This document shows, in pieces, positions 41,461 through 52,268 of a stretch of 64,000 bases of DNA (position 1 is its first letter; each line of letters starts with the position of its first letter). The stretch comes from Candidatus Nanosyncoccus sp. (GTDB lineage: Bacteria; Patescibacteriota; Saccharimonadia; Saccharimonadales; Saccharimonadaceae). The stretch spans positions 1,628 through 65,627 of the forward strand of contig JAZNDC010000030.1 in the NCBI GenBank assembly GCA_045587885.1. The letters are read 5' to 3'. The translations under genes were made by a program, and so were the position numbers. The notes under the pieces are model-generated. The model was not told the origin of the DNA. It did no database searches and saw nothing but the letters and a program-made list of their open reading frames with translations.

Positions 41461-41538
41461 GGTGGGATTAGCTCAGATGGTTAGAGCGTCTGATTGTGGT
41501 CCAGAAGGTCGTCGGTTCGATCCCGATATCCCACCCCA
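41461..41538 (+). tRNA. trnH: tRNA-His(GUG)
   Basis: G-1, TTGTGGT loop, C73, CCA. Confidence 0.93.
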
Positions 41539-41644
41539 TTTCGAGCTAGAATTCCGTATCTTAGCAGTTTTCGACTCTCGCTCTATCAATAATAGCGCGT
41601 CGAGTCGAGAAACTACTAATCTACGAAATTCTAGTCTCGAAATG
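41537..41644. repeat. 108-bp imperfect palindrome in the tRNA-His/tRNA-Gly spacer
   Basis: catttcgagctagaatt...ttagcagttttcgactc pairs with gagtcgagaaactactaa...aattctagtctcgaaatg. Confidence 0.85.
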
Positions 41645-41657
41645 AGCGGTTGAACAT

Positions 41658-41732
41658 GCGGGTATAGTACAGTGGTTAGTATGCAAGTTTTCCAAACTTG
41701 AGATGAGAGTTCGATTCTCTCTACCCGCACCA
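41658..41732 (+). tRNA. trnG: tRNA-Gly(UCC), discriminator A73
   Basis: gcgggta/tacccgc acceptor, caagt-tttccaa-acttg anticodon arm, CCA. Confidence 0.93.
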
Positions 41733-41838
41733 TAAAAAATGAGAGCTTGCTCTCAATTTTTTTATTTGGAGCAAGGATTTTACTATATTTGCACCAGGGG
41801 TGGGGTGCTGGAAAGTGGTTATATTTATGTTATAACTA

Positions 41839-41867
41839 TTGACAAATTATTGTATGTGTGCTATAAT
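41839..41867 (+). promoter_or_regulatory. Consensus sigma70 promoter with extended -10
   Basis: TTGACA-N17-TATAAT, with TG preceding -10. Confidence 0.85.
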
Positions 41868-41972
41868 TACGACAATTGCACATTAAGAAGTTGAAATGGG
41901 TTTTGCTGTGCAATTTTTACATAGAGTAGAGTAACTGAAAAATTATTACACTGTATAACGGAGGAAAAGCCA

Positions 41973-42449
41973 ATGAAGAGTCAGGACAGACAGAAAATTG
42001 AGCAGCAGAATGAAAGAAAAAAAGCAAACGCGGCAAATAACGACCGTATCACAAAGCTGGAAGAGAAGATGGATGGATTTGCGGAAACGCAGGCGAAGAT
42101 CCTCGAGATTCTCGAGCAAAACGGAATCGACCGTAAAACTGAGGCCGAAGAGAAGAAGGAAGAAAAGAAGGCCGAGAAGAAGGCCGAAAAGAAAGAAGAG
42201 AAAAAGGCCGAGAAGAAGGCTGAGAAAAAGGAAGAGAAGAAGGCCGAAAAGAAGGCACTGATTCCCAAGAAGGTCTATCAGGTCTGGGACGCAAGTTCCG
42301 GATGCTATAAAATTGTAATAGACCTGTGGGAGGCCAAACAGTTTTATGGGGATTACACCCCGGTTTGGGCCGGTTTCTTGCCCACGGGTGAGTATTCCCA
42401 CCTTCTTTCGAAGGAGGAGATGGCTATGCTCCTCCCTAGAGTAAAATAA
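41973..42449 (+). CDS. Hypothetical protein with KKAE/KKEE tandem repeats
   Basis: GGAGG SD; coiled coil; 12-bp unit repeats at ~42149-42255; terminator at ~42478-42505. Confidence 0.7.
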   Translation: MKSQDRQKIEQQNERKKANAANNDRITKLEEKMDGFAETQAKILEILEQNGIDRKTEAEEKKEEKKAEKKAEKKEEKKAEKKAEKKEEKKAEKKALIPKKVYQVWDASSGCYKIVIDLWEAKQFYGDYTPVWAGFLPTGEYSHLLSKEEMAMLLPRVK

Positions 42450-42540
42450 TAGCCTAAGCAAAACCCAAAACAACGAAAGACCGTGCTCGAATGAGCGCGG
42501 TTTTTCATTTTTGCCATAAGCGGAATATATGATATAAATA

Positions 42541-42569
42541 TTGACTTTTTAGGGAAAGTGTGCTATAAT
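42541..42569 (+). promoter_or_regulatory. Sigma70 promoter just outside the inverted-repeat-bounded segment
   Basis: TTGACT-N17-TATAAT with extended TG. Confidence 0.8.
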
Positions 42570-42618
42570 GTAATTAGTCTGAGTTAAGAGGTGTGTACTC
42601 TATAACGAGAAGACCATT

Positions 42619-42637
42619 AACAACCAAATCATCTCAG
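42619..42637 (+). repeat. Left arm of perfect 19-bp inverted repeat (partner 44615-44633)
   Basis: aacaaccaaatcatctcag. Confidence 0.9.
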
Positions 42638-42760
42638 ATTTCAAATATTGAGATCTGAAGTTGCCTATGGCAATTATAACCCCCCCAGGTTTTGAAATAT
42701 AACAATTGTTTGGGGGGTATGTGCCCCCTTCTATACAGAAAGGTTAAAAAGGTGATAAAT

Positions 42761-44509
42761 ATGAATATTATAAGAATATTCGAACTTATTTTCATTTTTA
42801 CGGGGATTTTAATCCCTGGCACAGTAATTGCAAATATGTTTATGGCACGCGACGAGGACGGAAAGGTTGCAGAACCTACTGGGTTCTTCGCAGCTCTTGG
42901 CTTCGCAGTTGCAGCAGTTATCGCAGCAGCAAGCATGACAAAACTCGCCGAAGCAGCCATAGCTAACAAAGGGTTAGGCGTTGTAATCGTTGGCATCTAT
43001 TTGCTAGCGATTGCAGCCTTCGTAGGGCTGGCCATTCTTTGGCAAAAAGAAGGCTCCACTGTCGGTGAGCTTATTTGCACGCTCATTGTAGCGGGAGCCA
43101 TCTACCGCCTTGCTGCTATTGCGGCGAGAGCCATGGGAGTTTTAACTACTTCTGCTTTTTGGCAGTCAGTTTTTAAGTGGTTACCGCTTGCTTGCTTTGT
43201 CGCGACGGCTGGGATGATCCTGGCCAGCTTCTTCTGGTTCCTGTATAAGGAGATGAAGAAAGGTGTTTGGGCAAAGGTACTGTACATCATTATCTTAGTG
43301 ATTACAGGTCTTATCCTGATTGGCACCTTGCCCATGATTAATTGGGCAGCAGCTGGGAGTAATCTGAAATTAGCCGACAATGACACTGACACCAATGTGA
43401 TTGAAGAGGAAGAGCCAGTGCTCACAGCCGAAGACCTGGATACCTTCACGGTTCCTGTTTTAACTGCTGAAGAGCTTGAGGAATTAACTCTTACGAAGTA
43501 TGCGAATATTTCGGAGGAGTTCCTCGATAGCTCTTTCTCAGTAAAAGATAAAGGGAGAACGGCGGAGACGGGCTTTAGTGACGCATTAACCTTTCCCTTT
43601 AGCACAAACGACAGATTCGCCGAGCTGGAGGAAGAGATTCTTCGGAATCCAGTCTACGGCGTAACGGTAGTGGAGGCACTGAAGGATAAAAAGTTAGGTT
43701 CGGAGACAATCAGTAAGCTTAATCCCTGGATGGACGAAATGGTCTTAAAGACCGACCGTTTTGGGATGGCTGCTTGGTTGGAGCATAGAGAAGGTACTGA
43801 AAAGTTTTATGTAACAAAAGAGTACCGAATTTATGCGGCAACGCTTTGCACTCTTCTTGAAAGATTTGTTGAGGTGGATGGCACCCAGACCTTCAAGACG
43901 AAGGAAAACTGGTGTCTGTCCATGACATCAATGAACAATGATAGGAGAGGCGTAAAAGCCAACTATCAGTACAGTGGACAGTTTTACGTACTGGTAGCCA
44001 AGACGAAAGCAGGCAAGGAAATGCTTAGAATTGGTTTCAATACCAAGGACAAGCGTCCGGCTTTCCCTGAAGGAACTCCGAAACCGACTCCGACGCCGAC
44101 GCCGACTCCGACGCCGACTCCGACTCCGACGCCGACCCCAACCCCTACTCCAAATCCAAAAGATAAGAGTAAAGGGACGCAGGGTGAGGTAGTCAAGCCG
44201 AATGACAATCCGGGTCCGGGGCCTGATACAAACAACCCCAAAGATCCGAATCATTCTGCGGCTGAGGAAAAACCCAACAGCACGGGTGAGAGTTATCCTG
44301 AGTACAAACAGGAAATGAAGGATAAGGAGGATATCAATAAGAAACAGAATCCTACAAATCCGACTACACCGGCTGACAAAGGTACGAATGTGGTCGATCC
44401 TGGTGCTGGATCGGTAAATCCGAAAGCCGACACTCCTCCGGCGGAGACCGGAGACGGCAAAAAGATTGACAACAATAATCCTGGTAAGCCCTGGGGGGGA
44501 CCGAACTAG
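42761..44509 (+). CDS. Multi-TM membrane protein with extracellular domain, Pro-Thr linker and low-complexity tail
   Basis: AAGGTGA SD; ~6-7 hydrophobic segments; (PT)n encoded by 6-bp repeats at ~44079-44155. Confidence 0.8.
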   Translation: MNIIRIFELIFIFTGILIPGTVIANMFMARDEDGKVAEPTGFFAALGFAVAAVIAAASMTKLAEAAIANKGLGVVIVGIYLLAIAAFVGLAILWQKEGSTVGELICTLIVAGAIYRLAAIAARAMGVLTTSAFWQSVFKWLPLACFVATAGMILASFFWFLYKEMKKGVWAKVLYIIILVITGLILIGTLPMINWAAAGSNLKLADNDTDTNVIEEEEPVLTAEDLDTFTVPVLTAEELEELTLTKYANISEEFLDSSFSVKDKGRTAETGFSDALTFPFSTNDRFAELEEEILRNPVYGVTVVEALKDKKLGSETISKLNPWMDEMVLKTDRFGMAAWLEHREGTEKFYVTKEYRIYAATLCTLLERFVEVDGTQTFKTKENWCLSMTSMNNDRRGVKANYQYSGQFYVLVAKTKAGKEMLRIGFNTKDKRPAFPEGTPKPTPTPTPTPTPTPTPTPTPTPTPNPKDKSKGTQGEVVKPNDNPGPGPDTNNPKDPNHSAAEEKPNSTGESYPEYKQEMKDKEDINKKQNPTNPTTPADKGTNVVDPGAGSVNPKADTPPAETGDGKKIDNNNPGKPWGGPN

Positions 44510-44614
44510 GATTTAGGCAACTTTATGGATGACATCGGAGAAATCTGATGAAACATAGTACTTTATAATGTGCCTGGCGGCTCACGCCGCCGGGTTTCAT
44601 CCAAAAATTTGAGA

Positions 44615-44633
44615 CTGAGATGATTTGGTTGTT
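44615..44633 (-). repeat. Right arm of perfect 19-bp inverted repeat (partner 42619-42637)
   Basis: ctgagatgatttggttgtt. Confidence 0.9.
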
Positions 44634-44775
44634 CAGACGAAAATTAACAATTCGGCTAGCAACACAGGGCTTAAACTTTTCTTTCGGAAAAGAAAAGTTT
44701 AGCAAAAGAAACTAGTATTAATTTTGAATTGAAAGTAAATTCCAATTCAGAATTTATTTAAGAAAGGATTTAATA

Positions 44776-46026
44776 ATGAATAAAATTTATAAGGCAGTTC
44801 TTGCTGCAGCTGCTGTCACAGTTGCTGCTACTGCAATAATTACTCCTGCTTGCGTAAACGCTTGGGGTGACTCTGACAATGGTCGTCCTAGCTATACTAT
44901 TGCAGATATTAATGCTGGTAAACTTGGTGACAAGATTACCTTTAACTCTATCTCTGACTCCAAAATTGGTGATGAGAAAAACTTCGTTGGCGCTAAGCTC
45001 AGCTCTCAAACCGCTGATACTTGGAACGCTGACTCTATCAACGTAAAAGATGGCGAAACTTATACAATTCGTCTTTATGTTCACAACAACAGCCCTAAGG
45101 GCACCGAGAAGGTTGCGGAAGGCGTAAAAGCTACTTTTGCAGTTCCTACCGCTGTTGCTACTTCTCATACTATCGTAGGCTATCTTGATTCTTCTAACGC
45201 TACTCCAAAGCGTTACTGGGATGAAGTTGTTCTCAAATCTGACAGCGACTTTTATCTAGAATACGTGGATGGCTCTGCTCGTTATACCAACGCTAAGCTC
45301 GGTACCGTAAAACTTCCTAACGAAGTTATTACTTCTGGTGCTACCCTTGGTTATGACAAGCTTGATGGTAAAATCCCTGGTTGTTATGAATACGATGGTG
45401 TTGTAACCATCCAGGTAAAGGTACACAAGTCTGTTTCCGCTAAGGTAAGCAAGACTGTACGTATCAAGGGTACCAAAGATTGGGCCGAATCTGTAAATGC
45501 TAAGGTTGGTGACGAAGTTGAGTACCAAATCGAGTACGTAAACCTCTTGAATACTCAAGTAAGCAACGTAGTCGTAGCTGACTCTCTTCCTGCTAACATG
45601 GAATATGTAAAAGGTTCTACCTATCTTTATAACTCCGTATACCAAGATGGTGTACAAATCAAAGATGATACCTTGGTTACTACCGGTATCAACATTGGTA
45701 GCTATACTGCCAATGGTAATGCGTATGTTCGTTTTACCGCTAAGGTAACTGATAAAAGTCTCCAATGTGGTAAAAACCAACTCGTAAACTGGGCTGGTGT
45801 AACGGCAAGCAATAAAACCAATAAAGATGATGCATCTGTAATGGTTAACAAGGATTGTCCTACCCCTACACCTCCCCCAACCCCTACCCCTACTCCAACT
45901 CCTACTCCAGATCCATTGCCGGAAACTGGTGCTAACGAGATTGCTCTTAGCGCTCTTGGTGTAGGTGGTGTTGTAACCGCTGGTGGTTACTATATTGCTA
46001 GCCGCAAAAAATTAATGAAAAAATAA
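44776..46026 (+). CDS. DUF11-type surface protein with LPXTG sorting signal
   Basis: Signal peptide, VNAKVGDEVEYQIEY...VVVADSLPANMEYV (DUF11-like), PT linker, LPETG + hydrophobic helix + RKKLMKK. Confidence 0.85.
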   Translation: MNKIYKAVLAAAAVTVAATAIITPACVNAWGDSDNGRPSYTIADINAGKLGDKITFNSISDSKIGDEKNFVGAKLSSQTADTWNADSINVKDGETYTIRLYVHNNSPKGTEKVAEGVKATFAVPTAVATSHTIVGYLDSSNATPKRYWDEVVLKSDSDFYLEYVDGSARYTNAKLGTVKLPNEVITSGATLGYDKLDGKIPGCYEYDGVVTIQVKVHKSVSAKVSKTVRIKGTKDWAESVNAKVGDEVEYQIEYVNLLNTQVSNVVVADSLPANMEYVKGSTYLYNSVYQDGVQIKDDTLVTTGINIGSYTANGNAYVRFTAKVTDKSLQCGKNQLVNWAGVTASNKTNKDDASVMVNKDCPTPTPPPTPTPTPTPTPDPLPETGANEIALSALGVGGVVTAGGYYIASRKKLMKK

Positions 46027-46177
46027 GTAGACCGCTTCACTTAGATGCCTAGGGGCATCATGGGCGGGAACTTTAAAAAAGGCCTCTCCTTGGCTTTGCT
46101 GAGGGGAGGCTTTTTTGTGGTATAATTGTTTGGCGGGCCTTTTTAAGGCCTTTAGTACTTTGAAAGGGGGTGAGGAG

Positions 46178-47874: not shown

Positions 47875-48717
47875 ATGGATCCGTCATACAATAATTCTTT
47901 TGGCAGTTTTAGTTCTGGTGGTGGGCAAACACCTCAGCCTGTTATGAGTCCGGTTGGTGGGGATATTACGTTGCCTGCTAGTCAGCCTGTGAAGAAGAAA
48001 AAGACTGGGCTGGTGATTATTTTGGTTATCTTAGTTTTGGGTCTGTGTGTAGTAGCTGCTATATTTTTGGTGCCAAATTTTGGAAAAGGCGGGGCATCAG
48101 GGGGCAATGATGCAATTGAAAAATACAAAAATTTAGTTTTATATGGTGATGAAAACAAAAGTAGCAGTGAAGAGTCGGGAATTTATTTTGAGGTGAATTA
48201 CCATAAAGGCGATATTACTTCGTGGCAAGAATACAATGATAAACTTGTAAACGCGTTGGACTCGGTGGAAAAATCAAATAGCGAGCTAAGTGGAACGGTT
48301 TCTCTACAAAAGGCTTTTTTGAAGATGTTGACGAAAAACAAAGTAATGGATGGTAACGAATTCAATGTCTTTTTGGAAAAGTATATTGAAGGTAAAGAAT
48401 CGTTAATGAATGCGTATATTGAGGGCGAATATGGAGAGCTGAAGAGTGTAGATAATGGTTATGTACAAGAGTATTATTATAGGATAATAGATTTGTCGAT
48501 GAGTGTCTTAGACTATATTGGTGTGCTTCAAGAAGAAGGCTGTACTAATTATTCACTTGAAGCACTTGCCGAGTGTGTTTCTTCAGAAGAAACTTGGAAC
48601 AATATTGATTTGATTATGGATAAAAGCTTTTCCTATGTAAATAGTTCTGATAATGAGATGGCGTTTGTGTTGCCAAATTATCTTCAACTTGTTAATGAGA
48701 TGGGGAATAAAGAATGA
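47875..48717 (+). CDS. Single-TM membrane protein
   Basis: KKKK followed by a hydrophobic helix; overlaps downstream gene by 4 nt. Confidence 0.7.
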   Translation: MDPSYNNSFGSFSSGGGQTPQPVMSPVGGDITLPASQPVKKKKTGLVIILVILVLGLCVVAAIFLVPNFGKGGASGGNDAIEKYKNLVLYGDENKSSSEESGIYFEVNYHKGDITSWQEYNDKLVNALDSVEKSNSELSGTVSLQKAFLKMLTKNKVMDGNEFNVFLEKYIEGKESLMNAYIEGEYGELKSVDNGYVQEYYYRIIDLSMSVLDYIGVLQEEGCTNYSLEALAECVSSEETWNNIDLIMDKSFSYVNSSDNEMAFVLPNYLQLVNEMGNKE

Positions 48718-51700
48718 ATAAATTGACTGGCGTTATCAAAAAAATAGGGGCTTGGGTTATTACTGTTGGTTTTTCAATGTTTGTTGTATTTCTTGTCTTA
48801 AGCAACAATGCATCCGCTGCGCTGCCATCCGAAAGCAGTACTATAGCTGCCAAGGCTTATTACAGAGATGTGTTTAACTGCTATCTGTCGGATAGTTGGC
48901 TAAAGAATGAGATTACGGTTGGGGAATTTTCTGGTAGACTAGAGAGTTTGGTACGGGATTCATCTAGTGTGGATGCCGTGAAGCAACCTGGGATTGGTGA
49001 TGAGAATACTAAGATTGGGTGCGGGACACTTATTTCATCGAAAGTTGCTAATGCGTTTGGCCCATATTCTACTTCTACTAATCCAAGTATACTGGAGCCC
49101 CGTCTTACGAAAGCATACTATGCATTTGTGGGGGGGTCTCGAGCCTCTAGTGCATCTTGTGCTGAATTTCCATTAAAATATGTTCTTTCAGAATATAGTA
49201 GGGCTTTTGGTAGTACTGACTATGTCACTAAAGCGTCTGGTGTGGAATATACGGAAAAGGTATGCGTAGGCGGTGAAAAGGGGGATTATTCTGTTCTTGT
49301 GAGTGGCGATGAGGCACGTATGGGTTGGTCTTCTCACGTATTGAAAATTACTTTTACTCGGTCTAGCCAGGAGATTAATGTAAAAAGATTAGCGGGCAAT
49401 AGAAGCTCGGAGATTGGCGCAGTTCCTATAGGTAACGAAGAAAATGCGGCGAATGTTTTGGCTAAGGTTGGGAATAAAATTGCAGATTTAATTGGTTCTT
49501 ATAGAGATTTAGGAAACTATAGGACAACGCATAACTATATAGGGACTCTGACCAATACGGATAAATATGAGTATTGGTCTGCATGCTCTAACTGGGTTCC
49601 TAGCGAAAATGGTATTAATTGTACGGGCTCTTCGACTGGAGATGGGAGTCCGTATGATATCAGTTTTGATGCTGCTGGCCGAGCAACAGCAAGATATAGA
49701 AAAAAAATTGATGATGACGTCATTAAGCATTTTTCAAATAATCAATACGATGCAAGTTCAATCAAATTTACGGATTTGGAGACCTACGTTTTGTATCAAT
49801 CATATCTGACTGATGTTTATGGTGTAAGTTCCATACGATGTTTTGATGGTGAACAGCATGGACGAGGGGAATACCAGGCACGTTTATATTCGTCGGAATA
49901 TGGCTATACAGATTATTGTTATTTTGATGTGTCAGATAGTAATAAGAGCAAAAAAGTAAATGGCGTGTTCGCTACGAGTAAGTATTGGGGGGATTTGATT
50001 GATTTAGATACGATGATTAGTCGTCTTCATAGCCTTAGACCTGCTGAGCCCCCAGATTCCTTATTGATTGAATCTGGTATTGATGAAGATGGTTCAATTG
50101 ATGATGGTGACGGCGGTGATGGTACTGGCAATACTGACCCTTGTTGGAATTCTGGGATTGATAGTATGGCGTGGGTGCTTTGCCCAGCACAGACGAATTT
50201 GCAATATTTTGCTTCTGGCCTTAGTGGTGCGGTAGACAAGTTCCTCCAGATGGACAGCTCTTTATACGATAACGAGAGTGGTGCACATACTGCCTGGGAG
50301 TATGTAAGGACATTCGCAAATGTTTTGATGATTATTTTCCTTGGTGCGATTATCTTCTCGCAGCTTACTGGCTATGGGATAGACAATTACGGGATTAAGA
50401 AAATCTTGCCAAAATTGGTAGTAATGGCAGTTTTGATTAATCTATCGTTCTTTGTTTGTCAGTTGGTTATAGATTTGTCTAATATTATAGGTAATGGTAT
50501 CCAAGGTTTGTTCTATGGGGTTGGTAATGGGATTCTTGAACGGAGCGAGTTGCGATCAGCAACGGGTGCAATGGAGGATTTTATTGGGAATTTGGTACCT
50601 GCGGTTTATGCGGTAGCTGCTGGCGGGACGGTGGCGATCGGCGCTGCTTCTGCTGCTGTTGCAAGTGGCGGCGGTGTTATGGCGGTATTGCTGATCATAT
50701 TGATGCTTCTTACAATTGCTATTGCAATTTTGGTATTCTTTATTTCGCTTGGTGCCAGAATAGTGATAATTATAATGTGTACCGTGTTAGCACCATTAGC
50801 TTTTGCGTGTTATATTCTACCAAATACGAAGCCTGTGTTTAAGAAGTGGTATGATGCCATGAAGGCAGCCATAGTTATTTATCCAATTTGTGGGGCAGTG
50901 ATGGGGATTGGTTATGTAATTAGAGCTATTTCGGTTACCCAAGAACGTGATTTGGCTTTTGTCGTGATTTCTGGTATTGCGCCATTTTTGCCATTCTTTA
51001 TGATTCCGTCTATGCTCAAGGGCGCGATAAGTGCACTTGGCGTGGTTGGCAATGCTCTTTCTACGATGGGTAACACGTTTAAGAGTAATGTGGGTAAGTC
51101 CGCGGGTGAGGCAAGTAAACAAATTCGTGATAGCGAACCATACAAGAATGCGTCAAGGTTGGCGTCCGAGGGAAGAATGAGACGTAGAGCGGGCATAGAC
51201 GAAAATGGACAGCTGACGAAGCGAGGAGAGAAAAAGGCAGAAAAAGCAAAGAAAAATCCAAAGAGAAGCAGGCTTCAGGCTGCATATATTGCTGCTGCCA
51301 AGAAGAGCGTTGCTGCCGACGAGGAGGCAAGTTCCCAGCTTACAAATGCACTATCTAAGTCTGGGATTGCCGGGCACGGTGGCGATGCAGAAACTTACTA
51401 CAATGAAGAATATGCAAAAGCTGCGAGTAAAGGTGATATTGCTGGTATGAATTCGGTAATAGCGGCTGCTGTTTCGTCTGGTTATTTGAAAGATAAAGAC
51501 ATAGCAAAGATAGTTAGGAATAATATGGGAACGGCAGAGGGTAAAATGAGCAAGGAATCCTTTAATTCTTGGGTGCGTGATTTGGGTGCTAAATATGGAA
51601 ATGGGTTTATGAGCACGGATTTTGAGATGAAACATTGGTCACAGAATGGTGGTAATGGTGGTACGGCCAAGTTGGGGAATTATGGTGATTATGCTACGAC

Positions 51701-52268
51701 TATGGATCGAAGTGACTTTAAGCCTGAAGATTGTGGTAAGTTGTCTAGTGATAGTCTTCTGGGAATGGCCAAAGCTGGAATAATTGACAGCAGTATGGCT
51801 AAGAGTGCTTTGGAAGCTAATCCAAATATGGCCGCTGATAAGAAAGTTATGTACAATGCAATTGCTAATGGAGCGAAAGTTGATTCTGATTTTAAGGCTA
51901 AATGTGATGCGGCATTGCAATTGAAAAATGATGATGACACTATCCTTATTGGGGGCAAAACATTCACAAAGACACAAGTTGATGCGTGGACAGCCGTGAA
52001 ACCACAAGATGTAAATGTGGTACAGAACTTTGCTGGTGGCGGTGGGCAACTTAATCCAGTTGATGTTGCAGTTCAGGGAGAAACATTTAACGTGCGTGAG
52101 GAAGCTCCAGCCAGTGCACCAACAAATCCTGTAGTTGGGAGTTCAAGGGCTGACCATGATACTGGACCTCGCCCAGTTGTTGGTAGCGCAAGGGCTAATG
52201 CTGACGAACAATATGGCAAAAAACCAAAGATACAATTCCGTCCACATGACCCAAATACACCGCGGTAA
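48714..52268 (+). CDS. Large VirB6/TrbL-like membrane protein (1184 aa)
   Basis: Central W..VRTFANVLMIIF...IKKILPKLVVMAVLINLSFF...IDLSN...PLAFACYILPNTKPVFKKW block, flanked by extracellular N-terminus and long hydrophilic tail. Confidence 0.65.
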   Translation: MNKLTGVIKKIGAWVITVGFSMFVVFLVLSNNASAALPSESSTIAAKAYYRDVFNCYLSDSWLKNEITVGEFSGRLESLVRDSSSVDAVKQPGIGDENTKIGCGTLISSKVANAFGPYSTSTNPSILEPRLTKAYYAFVGGSRASSASCAEFPLKYVLSEYSRAFGSTDYVTKASGVEYTEKVCVGGEKGDYSVLVSGDEARMGWSSHVLKITFTRSSQEINVKRLAGNRSSEIGAVPIGNEENAANVLAKVGNKIADLIGSYRDLGNYRTTHNYIGTLTNTDKYEYWSACSNWVPSENGINCTGSSTGDGSPYDISFDAAGRATARYRKKIDDDVIKHFSNNQYDASSIKFTDLETYVLYQSYLTDVYGVSSIRCFDGEQHGRGEYQARLYSSEYGYTDYCYFDVSDSNKSKKVNGVFATSKYWGDLIDLDTMISRLHSLRPAEPPDSLLIESGIDEDGSIDDGDGGDGTGNTDPCWNSGIDSMAWVLCPAQTNLQYFASGLSGAVDKFLQMDSSLYDNESGAHTAWEYVRTFANVLMIIFLGAIIFSQLTGYGIDNYGIKKILPKLVVMAVLINLSFFVCQLVIDLSNIIGNGIQGLFYGVGNGILERSELRSATGAMEDFIGNLVPAVYAVAAGGTVAIGAASAAVASGGGVMAVLLIILMLLTIAIAILVFFISLGARIVIIIMCTVLAPLAFACYILPNTKPVFKKWYDAMKAAIVIYPICGAVMGIGYVIRAISVTQERDLAFVVISGIAPFLPFFMIPSMLKGAISALGVVGNALSTMGNTFKSNVGKSAGEASKQIRDSEPYKNASRLASEGRMRRRAGIDENGQLTKRGEKKAEKAKKNPKRSRLQAAYIAAAKKSVAADEEASSQLTNALSKSGIAGHGGDAETYYNEEYAKAASKGDIAGMNSVIAAAVSSGYLKDKDIAKIVRNNMGTAEGKMSKESFNSWVRDLGAKYGNGFMSTDFEMKHWSQNGGNGGTAKLGNYGDYATTMDRSDFKPEDCGKLSSDSLLGMAKAGIIDSSMAKSALEANPNMAADKKVMYNAIANGAKVDSDFKAKCDAALQLKNDDDTILIGGKTFTKTQVDAWTAVKPQDVNVVQNFAGGGGQLNPVDVAVQGETFNVREEAPASAPTNPVVGSSRADHDTGPRPVVGSARANADEQYGKKPKIQFRPHDPNTPR

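Follow-up and report, generated by a model that had tools for sequence, protein, structure and literature searches.

Paired arms around a surface-protein gene of Candidatus Nanosyncoccus as probable strands of a long-range RNA helix in an operon laid out like an rRNA operon

We analysed a stretch of 64,000 nucleotides (nt) from Candidatus Nanosyncoccus sp. (GenBank assembly GCA_045587885.1, contig JAZNDC010000030.1, positions 1,628 to 65,627 of the forward strand), hereafter the window. In this window a perfect 19-base-pair (bp) inverted repeat brackets one gene for a putative membrane protein, immediately upstream of a gene for an LPXTG cell-wall-anchored surface protein. An earlier reading of the letters alone (the sequence-only reading) had proposed that the bracketed segment is an invertible DNA switch. 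We argue here, with a probability of roughly 0.65, that the two arms of the repeat are not recombination sites, and that they are the two strands of a ~24-bp long-range RNA helix in the sense RNA of a two-gene operon for surface proteins, which is laid out like a ribosomal RNA (rRNA) operon. The evidence comes from the architecture of the sequence, the conservation of the repeat, the covariation of its arms and their thermodynamic preference for each other, the likeness of two elements to the boxA of rRNA operons, a second helix around the second gene, the invariant orientation of the bracketed segment and the presence of the nusB and rnc genes; from it we infer that the two genes are co-transcribed, that Nus factors bind, that RNase III cleaves and that there is a regulatory outcome.

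Conservation of the inverted repeat

The left arm (42619-42637, AACAACCAAATCATCTCAG) is the perfect reverse complement of the right arm (44615-44633). The weaker similarity that had been seen continuing inward is genuine, 42619-42650 and 44602-44633 being 81% complementary across 32 nt. In 100 dinucleotide shuffles we obtained 0 arm matches, even at up to 3 mismatches, and none is expected by chance. A search of the whole genome (834 kb) for copies of the 19-mer found two only, i.e. the two arms. Most of what the sequence-only reading had described around the repeat was also as it had said: the promoter lies outside the repeat-bounded segment, a local hairpin (P2) overlaps the left arm, no recombinase gene is on the contig of the window and no target-site duplication was seen at the repeats. 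In two cases only a part of the description stood. The GC-rich hairpin after the bracketed gene (hairpin B), taken as terminator-like, is present but has no proper U tract, and the TATAAT at 44564-44569, which indeed has no -35 box, is not a conserved -10 box, given that relatives have YACNTTAT in its place and the TATAAT is peculiar to this genome.

We found the arm pair, described by a degenerate 16-mer, in 132 of the 151 genomes of the genus, usually as one forward and one reversed copy 1.5-2.7 kb apart; beyond the genus the same 16-mer occurred at background level. Members of the genus missed by this pattern, as well as the sister genera g26 and g27, have different arm sequences that are still complementary, ~2 kb apart and at the same site (for example CATTAACAAGTCAGATCATTACA with TGTAATGATCTGATTTGATAATG). 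The sequence-only reading had named a lack of conservation of the repeats in homologous loci, along with an absence of inverted reads, as what would refute it; on the first point they are strongly conserved there, and the repeat is under selection. For the comparisons below we considered 56 loci retrieved from the genus plus the window, that is 57 species loci. In all of them the pair encloses one long open frame (two in some species) directly ahead of the LPXTG orthologue. Orthologues of the hypervariable bracketed gene have 25-53% identity or are undetectable, and the flanks of the gene are nearly invariant. Identical-protein look-ups for the two proteins of the window returned no records, and orthologues were used instead.

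In three species (G098, G031 and G114) the cassette occurs in tandem, and in this case each membrane-protein gene is bracketed by a 5' and a 3' arm of its own, the inner 3' arm being directly followed by the promoter of the next copy. The duplicated unit, upstream of the LPXTG gene, comprises promoter, leader, gene and 3' arm (loci L099 of G098, L102 of G031 on contig C35, and L274 of G114). The inner 3' arms of these cassettes are partly degenerate, with 13 of 16 pairs.

Neither the literature nor the databases searched gave a precedent for the element itself: no paper describing it was found, and a search of 41700-45000 against Rfam 15 gave no family at gathering score, with sub-threshold chance matches only. 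A crude genome scan for more cassettes combining boxA and helix returned this locus only, plus one other match on contig C13, inside a coding region.

Covariation and folding of the first helix

The helix that the two arms would form is called here helix 1. Comparisons of helices were anchored and gapless; RNAduplex across long flanks gave giant uninterpretable duplexes. Over the 24 bp of helix 1, 93.9% of the cells were paired in 77 distinct arm pairs, a value reached by 0 of 500 shuffles (87.9% after shuffling). Twelve pairs were altered on both sides, and sliding the partner lowered the pairing to 25-50%. As regards one-sided differences, sense-strand G-U was found overall in 132 cells versus 59, and among the diverged arm pairs G-U mismatches numbered 12 on the sense strand versus 1 on the antisense strand. 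We consider this counting of G-U versus A-C by strand as suggestive but mixed for helix 1, and not decisive.

When the leader and the region after the gene were folded together, the minimum-energy structure contained at least 16 arm-arm bp in 47 of 56 genomes, with a mean gain from arm pairing of -25 kcal/mol. The duplex of the window had -34 kcal/mol, and P2 was displaced. The 5' half of P2 is at the same time the innermost part of the long-range pairing, which makes P2 and helix 1 mutually exclusive; three segments thus covary, i.e. both arms and the 3' half of P2. In the fold of the leader, the 5' strand of helix 1 is single-stranded as far as P2, and it is preceded, after the first leader hairpin (P1), by the conserved single strand AGACCAUUAACAA.

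Likeness to rRNA operons and the second helix

For the rRNA operons we considered those of two species of the genus, G135 and G139. The rRNA leaders of these two species consist of a promoter, a hairpin and then GACGAATTTTAACAATTCAGTTGTGCAATT. The 16S leader-trailer helix starts within boxA (GACGAATTTTAACAATTCAG...), with TTAACAATTCAGTTGTGCAATT pairing with AATTGCACAGCTGAGTTGTTAA, and the 16S gene is followed by a spacer boxA, GACAAAATTAACAATTG. In the window, the leader element AGACCATTAACAA resembles the boxA of the rRNA leaders of the genus (GACGAATTTTAACAATT), with the common core GAC..TTAACAA, and helix 1 begins at 42619, inside this boxA-like element, which is the same arrangement as in the rRNA leaders of G135 and G139. 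A second boxA-like module, downstream of the right arm, agrees with the G135 rRNA leader in 16 of the 18 bases with which the module begins, and with the G135 spacer boxA in 15 of 17. Compared with the gammaproteobacterial boxA consensus GYTCTTTAANA (PMC5725501), the boxA-like core fits in the TTTAANA part.

The rRNA parallel predicts a second helix, around the second cistron. We therefore looked for it and found it: CGGCTAGCAA, at the end of the second boxA-like module, is complementary to TTGCTAGCCG, in the last codons of the LPXTG gene, and the pairing of this helix 2 is kept in 52 distinct loci. In four cases a synonymous AGC to AGT change in the LPXTG gene is paired with a G to A change upstream; other compensatory pairs are GCTAGTCAA/TTGACTAGC, GCTAAC/GTTAGC, GCTAGA/TCTAGC and GCGAT/ATCGC. 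Changes on both sides were present in 6 pairs versus 2.5 expected (0 of 500 shuffles), and the pairing was 88% versus 17-53% in slid controls.

The genes for the two proteins that such a system would need in the first place, nusB and rnc (RNase III), are both present outside the window as neighbours ~700 nt apart (contig C22:10371-11856).

The transcript that carries the 3' arm

Between the two genes we found no conserved promoter (the best candidates scored 7-10 of 13; the leader promoter scores 11-13 and intragenic controls 7.7) and no terminator with a U tract, the canonical terminator being solely after the LPXTG gene. A promoter of the LPXTG gene using the TTAACA of the second boxA-like module as -35 box was tried and rejected as weak and not conserved. 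The LPXTG orthologue of the sister genus g26 comes with a consensus promoter of its own, which lies downstream of the 3' arm. Separately, we observed that in one g26 locus (L283, genome G214) this promoter is a perfect TTGACA-17-TATAAT, preceded by the CATAAGC motif that is also found before the Nanosyncoccus leader promoters. Because both the tandem cassettes and g26 keep the 3' arm with the bracketed gene, we assign the arm to the 3' untranslated region (UTR) of that gene. Judging from the sequence, this 3' UTR probably doubles in Nanosyncoccus as the stretch between the two cistrons of a joint transcript.

The sequence-only reading had offered as an alternative that a transcript crossing the right arm pairs with the leader of the bracketed gene. 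This comes near to the reading favoured here, a covarying sense-strand RNA helix; however, the right arm is part of the 3' UTR of the bracketed gene and not of the leader of the LPXTG gene, as tandem cassettes and sister genus show. In a variant with pairing in trans, a separate LPXTG messenger RNA (mRNA) would start upstream of the right arm and its 5' UTR would pair with the leader of the membrane-protein gene, cross-regulating the two genes. The complementarity and the covariation apply to this variant equally, the window contains the TATAAT at 44564-44569, and hairpin B could serve as a 5' stabilising hairpin. Against it, that TATAAT is unconserved and without a -35 box and no intergenic promoter is conserved, each membrane-protein gene of the tandem cassettes has the 3' strand behind it, with the promoter of the next copy directly after, and in g26 the consensus promoter of the LPXTG gene lies downstream of the 3' strand. 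We consider trans pairing improbable.

Probable base pairing rather than protein or recombination sites

The arms could also be paired operators, with a DNA-binding regulator occupying both and co-regulating the two surface genes by looping or as a roadblock. The 16-bp core is highly conserved in the genus, and its recurrent differences are sense-strand A-C, which base pairing disfavours; both facts would fit a protein site. On the other hand, the sites are non-palindromic, no regulator gene is linked to the locus, and the inner 7-8 bp, like the arms of the sister genera, vary freely yet stay complementary, in step with the 3' half of P2. This last point is what base pairing, and not a protein site, would leave behind. 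In our estimate paired operators are distinctly improbable.

As regards the DNA switch itself, the proposal was that a site-specific recombinase inverts 42619-44633 and thereby uncouples the gene from its external promoter. Invertons such as fimS, the capsule promoters of Bacteroides and cwpV of C. difficile have inverted repeats of 10-40 bp flanking a segment that affects the expression of surface proteins. The repeats studied here are genuine, 19-24 bp long, conserved, and placed around an entire surface-protein gene whose promoter lies outside. Two tyrosine and 4 large serine recombinases are encoded in the genome, all away from the contig of the window, and serine recombinase genes were seen at 2-7 kb from the locus in 3 relatives, which is about the chance expectation. 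The orientation of the segment, however, is invariant: the inverted state was found in 0 of more than 100 loci or contigs, and in 57 of 57 species loci the long bracketed frame points the same way as the LPXTG gene. In ~40 further loci from Saccharibacteria genomes with both arms and in 14 metagenome contigs bearing the arm there was no chimeric junction, the leader-type outer flank always joining leader-type inner sequence and the trailer-type joining trailer-type. Eighteen contigs from independent samples of 3 species, with an identical LPXTG protein within each species, had the normal arrangement and the same arm-specific differences (the junction-level check in independent samples refers to these 18 loci). 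We also searched 241 million metagenome records for the inverted-junction pattern and found no match; this negative is weak alone, because the matching control for that arm subtype found only 15 contigs, some of which are from the same assemblies as the metagenome-assembled genomes (MAGs).

The sequences of the arms point in the same direction. Their differences are directional: at position 16 of the motif, 26 loci have G in the 5' arm with A in the 3' one, and none has the opposite. The differences never swap sides, and the arms evolve as separate lineages without exchange. Nor is any dedicated invertase conserved with the repeats. Serine recombinases are missing in 30 of 81 near-complete genomes of the genus, many of them bearing the repeat, and the sole universal tyrosine recombinase is one Xer-like protein of ~320 amino acids (aa), ~40 of the 81 genomes having no other. 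Differently from the known invertons, one orientation is seen, a whole gene and not a promoter is enclosed, and the arms sit in UTRs, namely a structured, transcribed leader and 3' UTR. On this evidence, which is good at the level of assemblies and contigs, we reject the inversion as very improbable.

The least probable of the alternatives is that the arms are terminal repeats of a non-autonomous mobile cassette, or that the flanks are merely homology arms for swapping a variable gene between strains: conserved flanks around a hypervariable gene, tandem duplications in three species and two transfer RNA (tRNA) genes just upstream would agree with it, but each genome has one copy, always in the same syntenic position beside the LPXTG gene in all 57 loci, there are no transposase, target-site duplication or empty sites, and a mobile origin leaves the sense-strand G-U pattern, the link to boxA and the second helix unexplained. 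As a by-product, the conserved flanks could nevertheless allow exchange through homologous recombination.

Points that weigh against the long-range RNA helix

Several observations count against the reading of the arms as strands of an RNA helix in a two-gene transcript. Hairpin B might be an effective terminator, and in that case the 3' strand would be rarely transcribed. In the core of helix 1, positions 2, 10 and 13 of the 16-mer have sense-strand A-C mismatches in 9, 14 and 15 of the 57 loci, respectively, and the G-U bias, when counted by site and not by genome, is only ~11 to 5; the cross-genome counts lack phylogenetic independence. P2 is almost purely Watson-Crick and alone gives no clue to the functional strand. 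The predicted unpaired probability of the ribosome-binding site has a mean of 0.39 with the arm free and of 0.38 when the arm is blocked, which gives no sign of a simple translational switch. Helix 2 has its 3' strand in coding sequence, and the conservation of this strand is thus partly protein constraint. Finally, the boxA comparison had to rely on two other species of the genus because this MAG contains no 16S gene and no rRNA operon.

Features of the proposed operon

The features of the locus are collected in Table 1. Transcription is predicted to start at ~42576. P1 occupies the place that boxB has in an rRNA leader. Hairpin B has compensatory changes among species in its stem, with U-G pairs on the + strand.

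Table 1. Elements of the two-gene locus in the window, with positions counted from its first letter
Feature	Position	Strand	Evidence
Operon promoter: -35 TTGACT, 17-nt spacer, TG-extended -10 TATAAT	42541-42569	+	Equivalent scores 11-13/13 in 56/57 loci (the 57th begins too near a contig end to contain the promoter)
P1, 5'-terminal leader hairpin with GUCU...AGAC closing pairs	42577-42614	+	Fold; AGTCT...AGAC conserved in the 5' regions of relatives
boxA-like leader element AGACCATTAACAA	42611-42623	+	Near-invariant in 57 loci
Putative helix 1, 5' strand (left arm), perfect over 42619-42637 plus imperfect inward extension	42619-42645	+	Complementarity, covariation
P2, local hairpin	42634-42658	+	In 57/57 loci, with 25 different stem sequences
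Remaining structured leader, with C-rich/G-rich hairpin at ~42681-42716, and ribosome-binding site	42659-42760	+	Fold
Hypervariable membrane-protein gene, 582 aa	42761-44509	+	Always co-directional with the LPXTG gene
Single-stranded motif AGTACTTTAT (genus-wide consensus AGYACNTTAT) between two 3'-UTR hairpins, before hairpin B	44557-44566	+	Conservation
Hairpin B, GC-rich, CCTGGCGGC-TCAC-GCCGCCGGG, then UUUCAUCC instead of a U tract	44573-44594	+	
Putative helix 1, 3' strand (right arm), perfect over 44615-44633	44607-44633	+	Complementarity, covariation
Second boxA-like module AGACGAAAATTAACAATTCGGCTAGCAA	44635-44662	+	Near-invariant in relatives
Putative helix 2, 5' strand CGGCTAGCAA, end of the second boxA-like module	44653-44662	+	
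DUF11/LPXTG cell-wall-anchored surface-protein gene, second cistron	44776-46026	+	
Putative helix 2, 3' strand TTGCTAGCCG, in the final LPXTG codons (..IASRKK..)	45995-46004	+	
Canonical intrinsic terminator GCCTCTCC...GGGGAGGC then TTTTTT, end of the operon	46082-46117	+	

The leader ends in a C7...G6 hairpin (42681-42753). In the leaders of relatives we observed a CCUCC segment able to pair with the GGAGG ribosome-binding site, which suggests a possible separate module of translational control.

The 582-aa protein has several hydrophobic stretches at its N-terminus, with the look of membrane-spanning segments, a Pro-Thr linker and a C-terminal WGGPN, and a Pfam search of it found no family. 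Despite the hypervariability, a W-G-G-P-x-D-like motif forms the end of 27 of the 57 bracketed proteins (in the window WGGPN, 44480-44509; orthologues L059-L114); to judge from these endings, it could be a conserved C-terminal signal. In another species, the orthologous gene is split in one metagenome sample by one nonsense change, TGC to TGA (L296:2049-3809 versus L297), the gene being intact in all the other samples of that species.

Neighbouring sequence

Just upstream of the locus are a tRNA-His(GTG) at 41462-41538 and a tRNA-Gly(TCC) at 41658-41732. An 86-aa open reading frame (ORF) on the opposite strand (41473-41733) is therefore spurious, and its conservation in relatives is that of the tRNA. 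The region 41823-42506 contains a Lys/Glu/Ala-rich ORF of 158 aa (41973-42449) with 12-nt periodic repeats, and is found in some relatives only; the promoter of this ORF is 78% identical over 45 nt to the operon promoter, and the ORF has its own canonical terminator (42475-42506). On the other side, the next large gene after the LPXTG orthologue in relatives (L287-L294) encodes ~900 aa and matches PF19590 (TrbL_3). The 1184-aa ORF at 48714-52268 of the window may be its counterpart, and the surface-protein operon may thus adjoin a membrane-protein gene of conjugation or type IV secretion-like type.

Discussion

If the arms act as an RNA helix, the operon would be read in the order promoter, P1, boxA-like element, 5' strand of helix 1, membrane-protein gene, hairpin B, 3' strand of helix 1, second boxA-like element, 5' strand of helix 2, LPXTG gene with the 3' strand of helix 2 in its last codons, and canonical terminator. 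NusB/NusE and their partners would bind boxA on the nascent leader RNA, so that the polymerase reads through hairpin B, and the boxA-bound complex would tether the leader strand to the RNA exit channel, as in the tethering model proposed for rRNA (PMC10250234). The trailer strand, emerging 2 kb later, would then anneal to the single-stranded toehold of 16-19 nt and invade P2, with the cistron looped out. RNase III would cut the resulting 19-24-bp duplex and separate the LPXTG mRNA from the membrane-protein mRNA, whose two ends would be protected by P2 and hairpin B. This cleavage would set the relative stability and the output of the two surface proteins.

The closest known system is the E. 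coli rrn operon (PMC10250234), with which the locus shares the succession of promoter, hairpin, boxA, 5' strand, enclosed RNA, 3' strand, second boxA and second enclosed RNA. Helix 1, like the leader-trailer helix of rRNA, starts at or inside boxA, as the 16S helix of the genus does; its length would be sufficient for RNase III, and nusB and rnc are present. The difference is that here the enclosed RNAs are translated mRNAs of surface proteins and the 3' strand of the second helix is in coding sequence; moreover, binding, antitermination and cleavage are in our case predictions.

Among mRNAs, the closest precedents are yabJ-spoVG and icaR. A duplex between the 5' UTR and the intercistronic region of yabJ-spoVG in S. 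aureus is a substrate of RNase III and controls one gene of the operon (bioRxiv 10.64898/2026.09.18.752551). Unlike that duplex, the helix considered here is longer (~24 bp), bridges 2 kb, occurs together with boxA-like elements and is conserved with covariation across genus and family. In S. aureus icaR, the 5' UTR and 3' UTR of one mRNA pair to give a substrate of RNase III, and the 3' UTR masks the ribosome-binding site and blocks translation (PMC3868564). The pairing of the two ends of the RNA of the bracketed gene is alike, but the arm is here ~110 nt upstream of the ribosome-binding site. We rejected an icaR-like mechanism because the predicted accessibility of that site is unchanged when the arm is sequestered. 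As to boxA outside rRNA, some protein-coding genes, among them E. coli suhB, have a boxA in their 5' UTR that recruits Nus factors and, near the start codon, represses the gene (PMC5725501); none of these cases is coupled to a long-range helix that encloses a gene.

What appears new here, on the sequence evidence, is the application to mRNAs of leader-trailer helices with boxA, known from rRNA. Whether Saccharibacteria borrowed the whole system of the rRNA operon, that is boxA-Nus antitermination, cistron-looping leader-trailer helices and RNase III maturation, as a chassis for fast-evolving surface-protein genes is a broader claim, to which we give somewhat less than an even chance. If it is true, such surface-protein mRNAs would be transcribed and processed like precursors of ribosomal RNA. 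The helix would be among the very few documented end-to-end mRNA helices in bacteria. For surveys of invertons there is a practical consequence, since those relying on inverted repeats alone would put these loci in the wrong class.

Saccharibacteria have tiny genomes and live as obligate epibionts, and their surface proteins are the interface with the host bacterium; to our knowledge, almost nothing is known about how these proteins are regulated. If the reading proposed here is correct, the family would have an RNA design that encloses protein-coding cistrons over 2 kb, and the mechanism of Nus/boxA and leader-trailer pairing would extend beyond rRNA.

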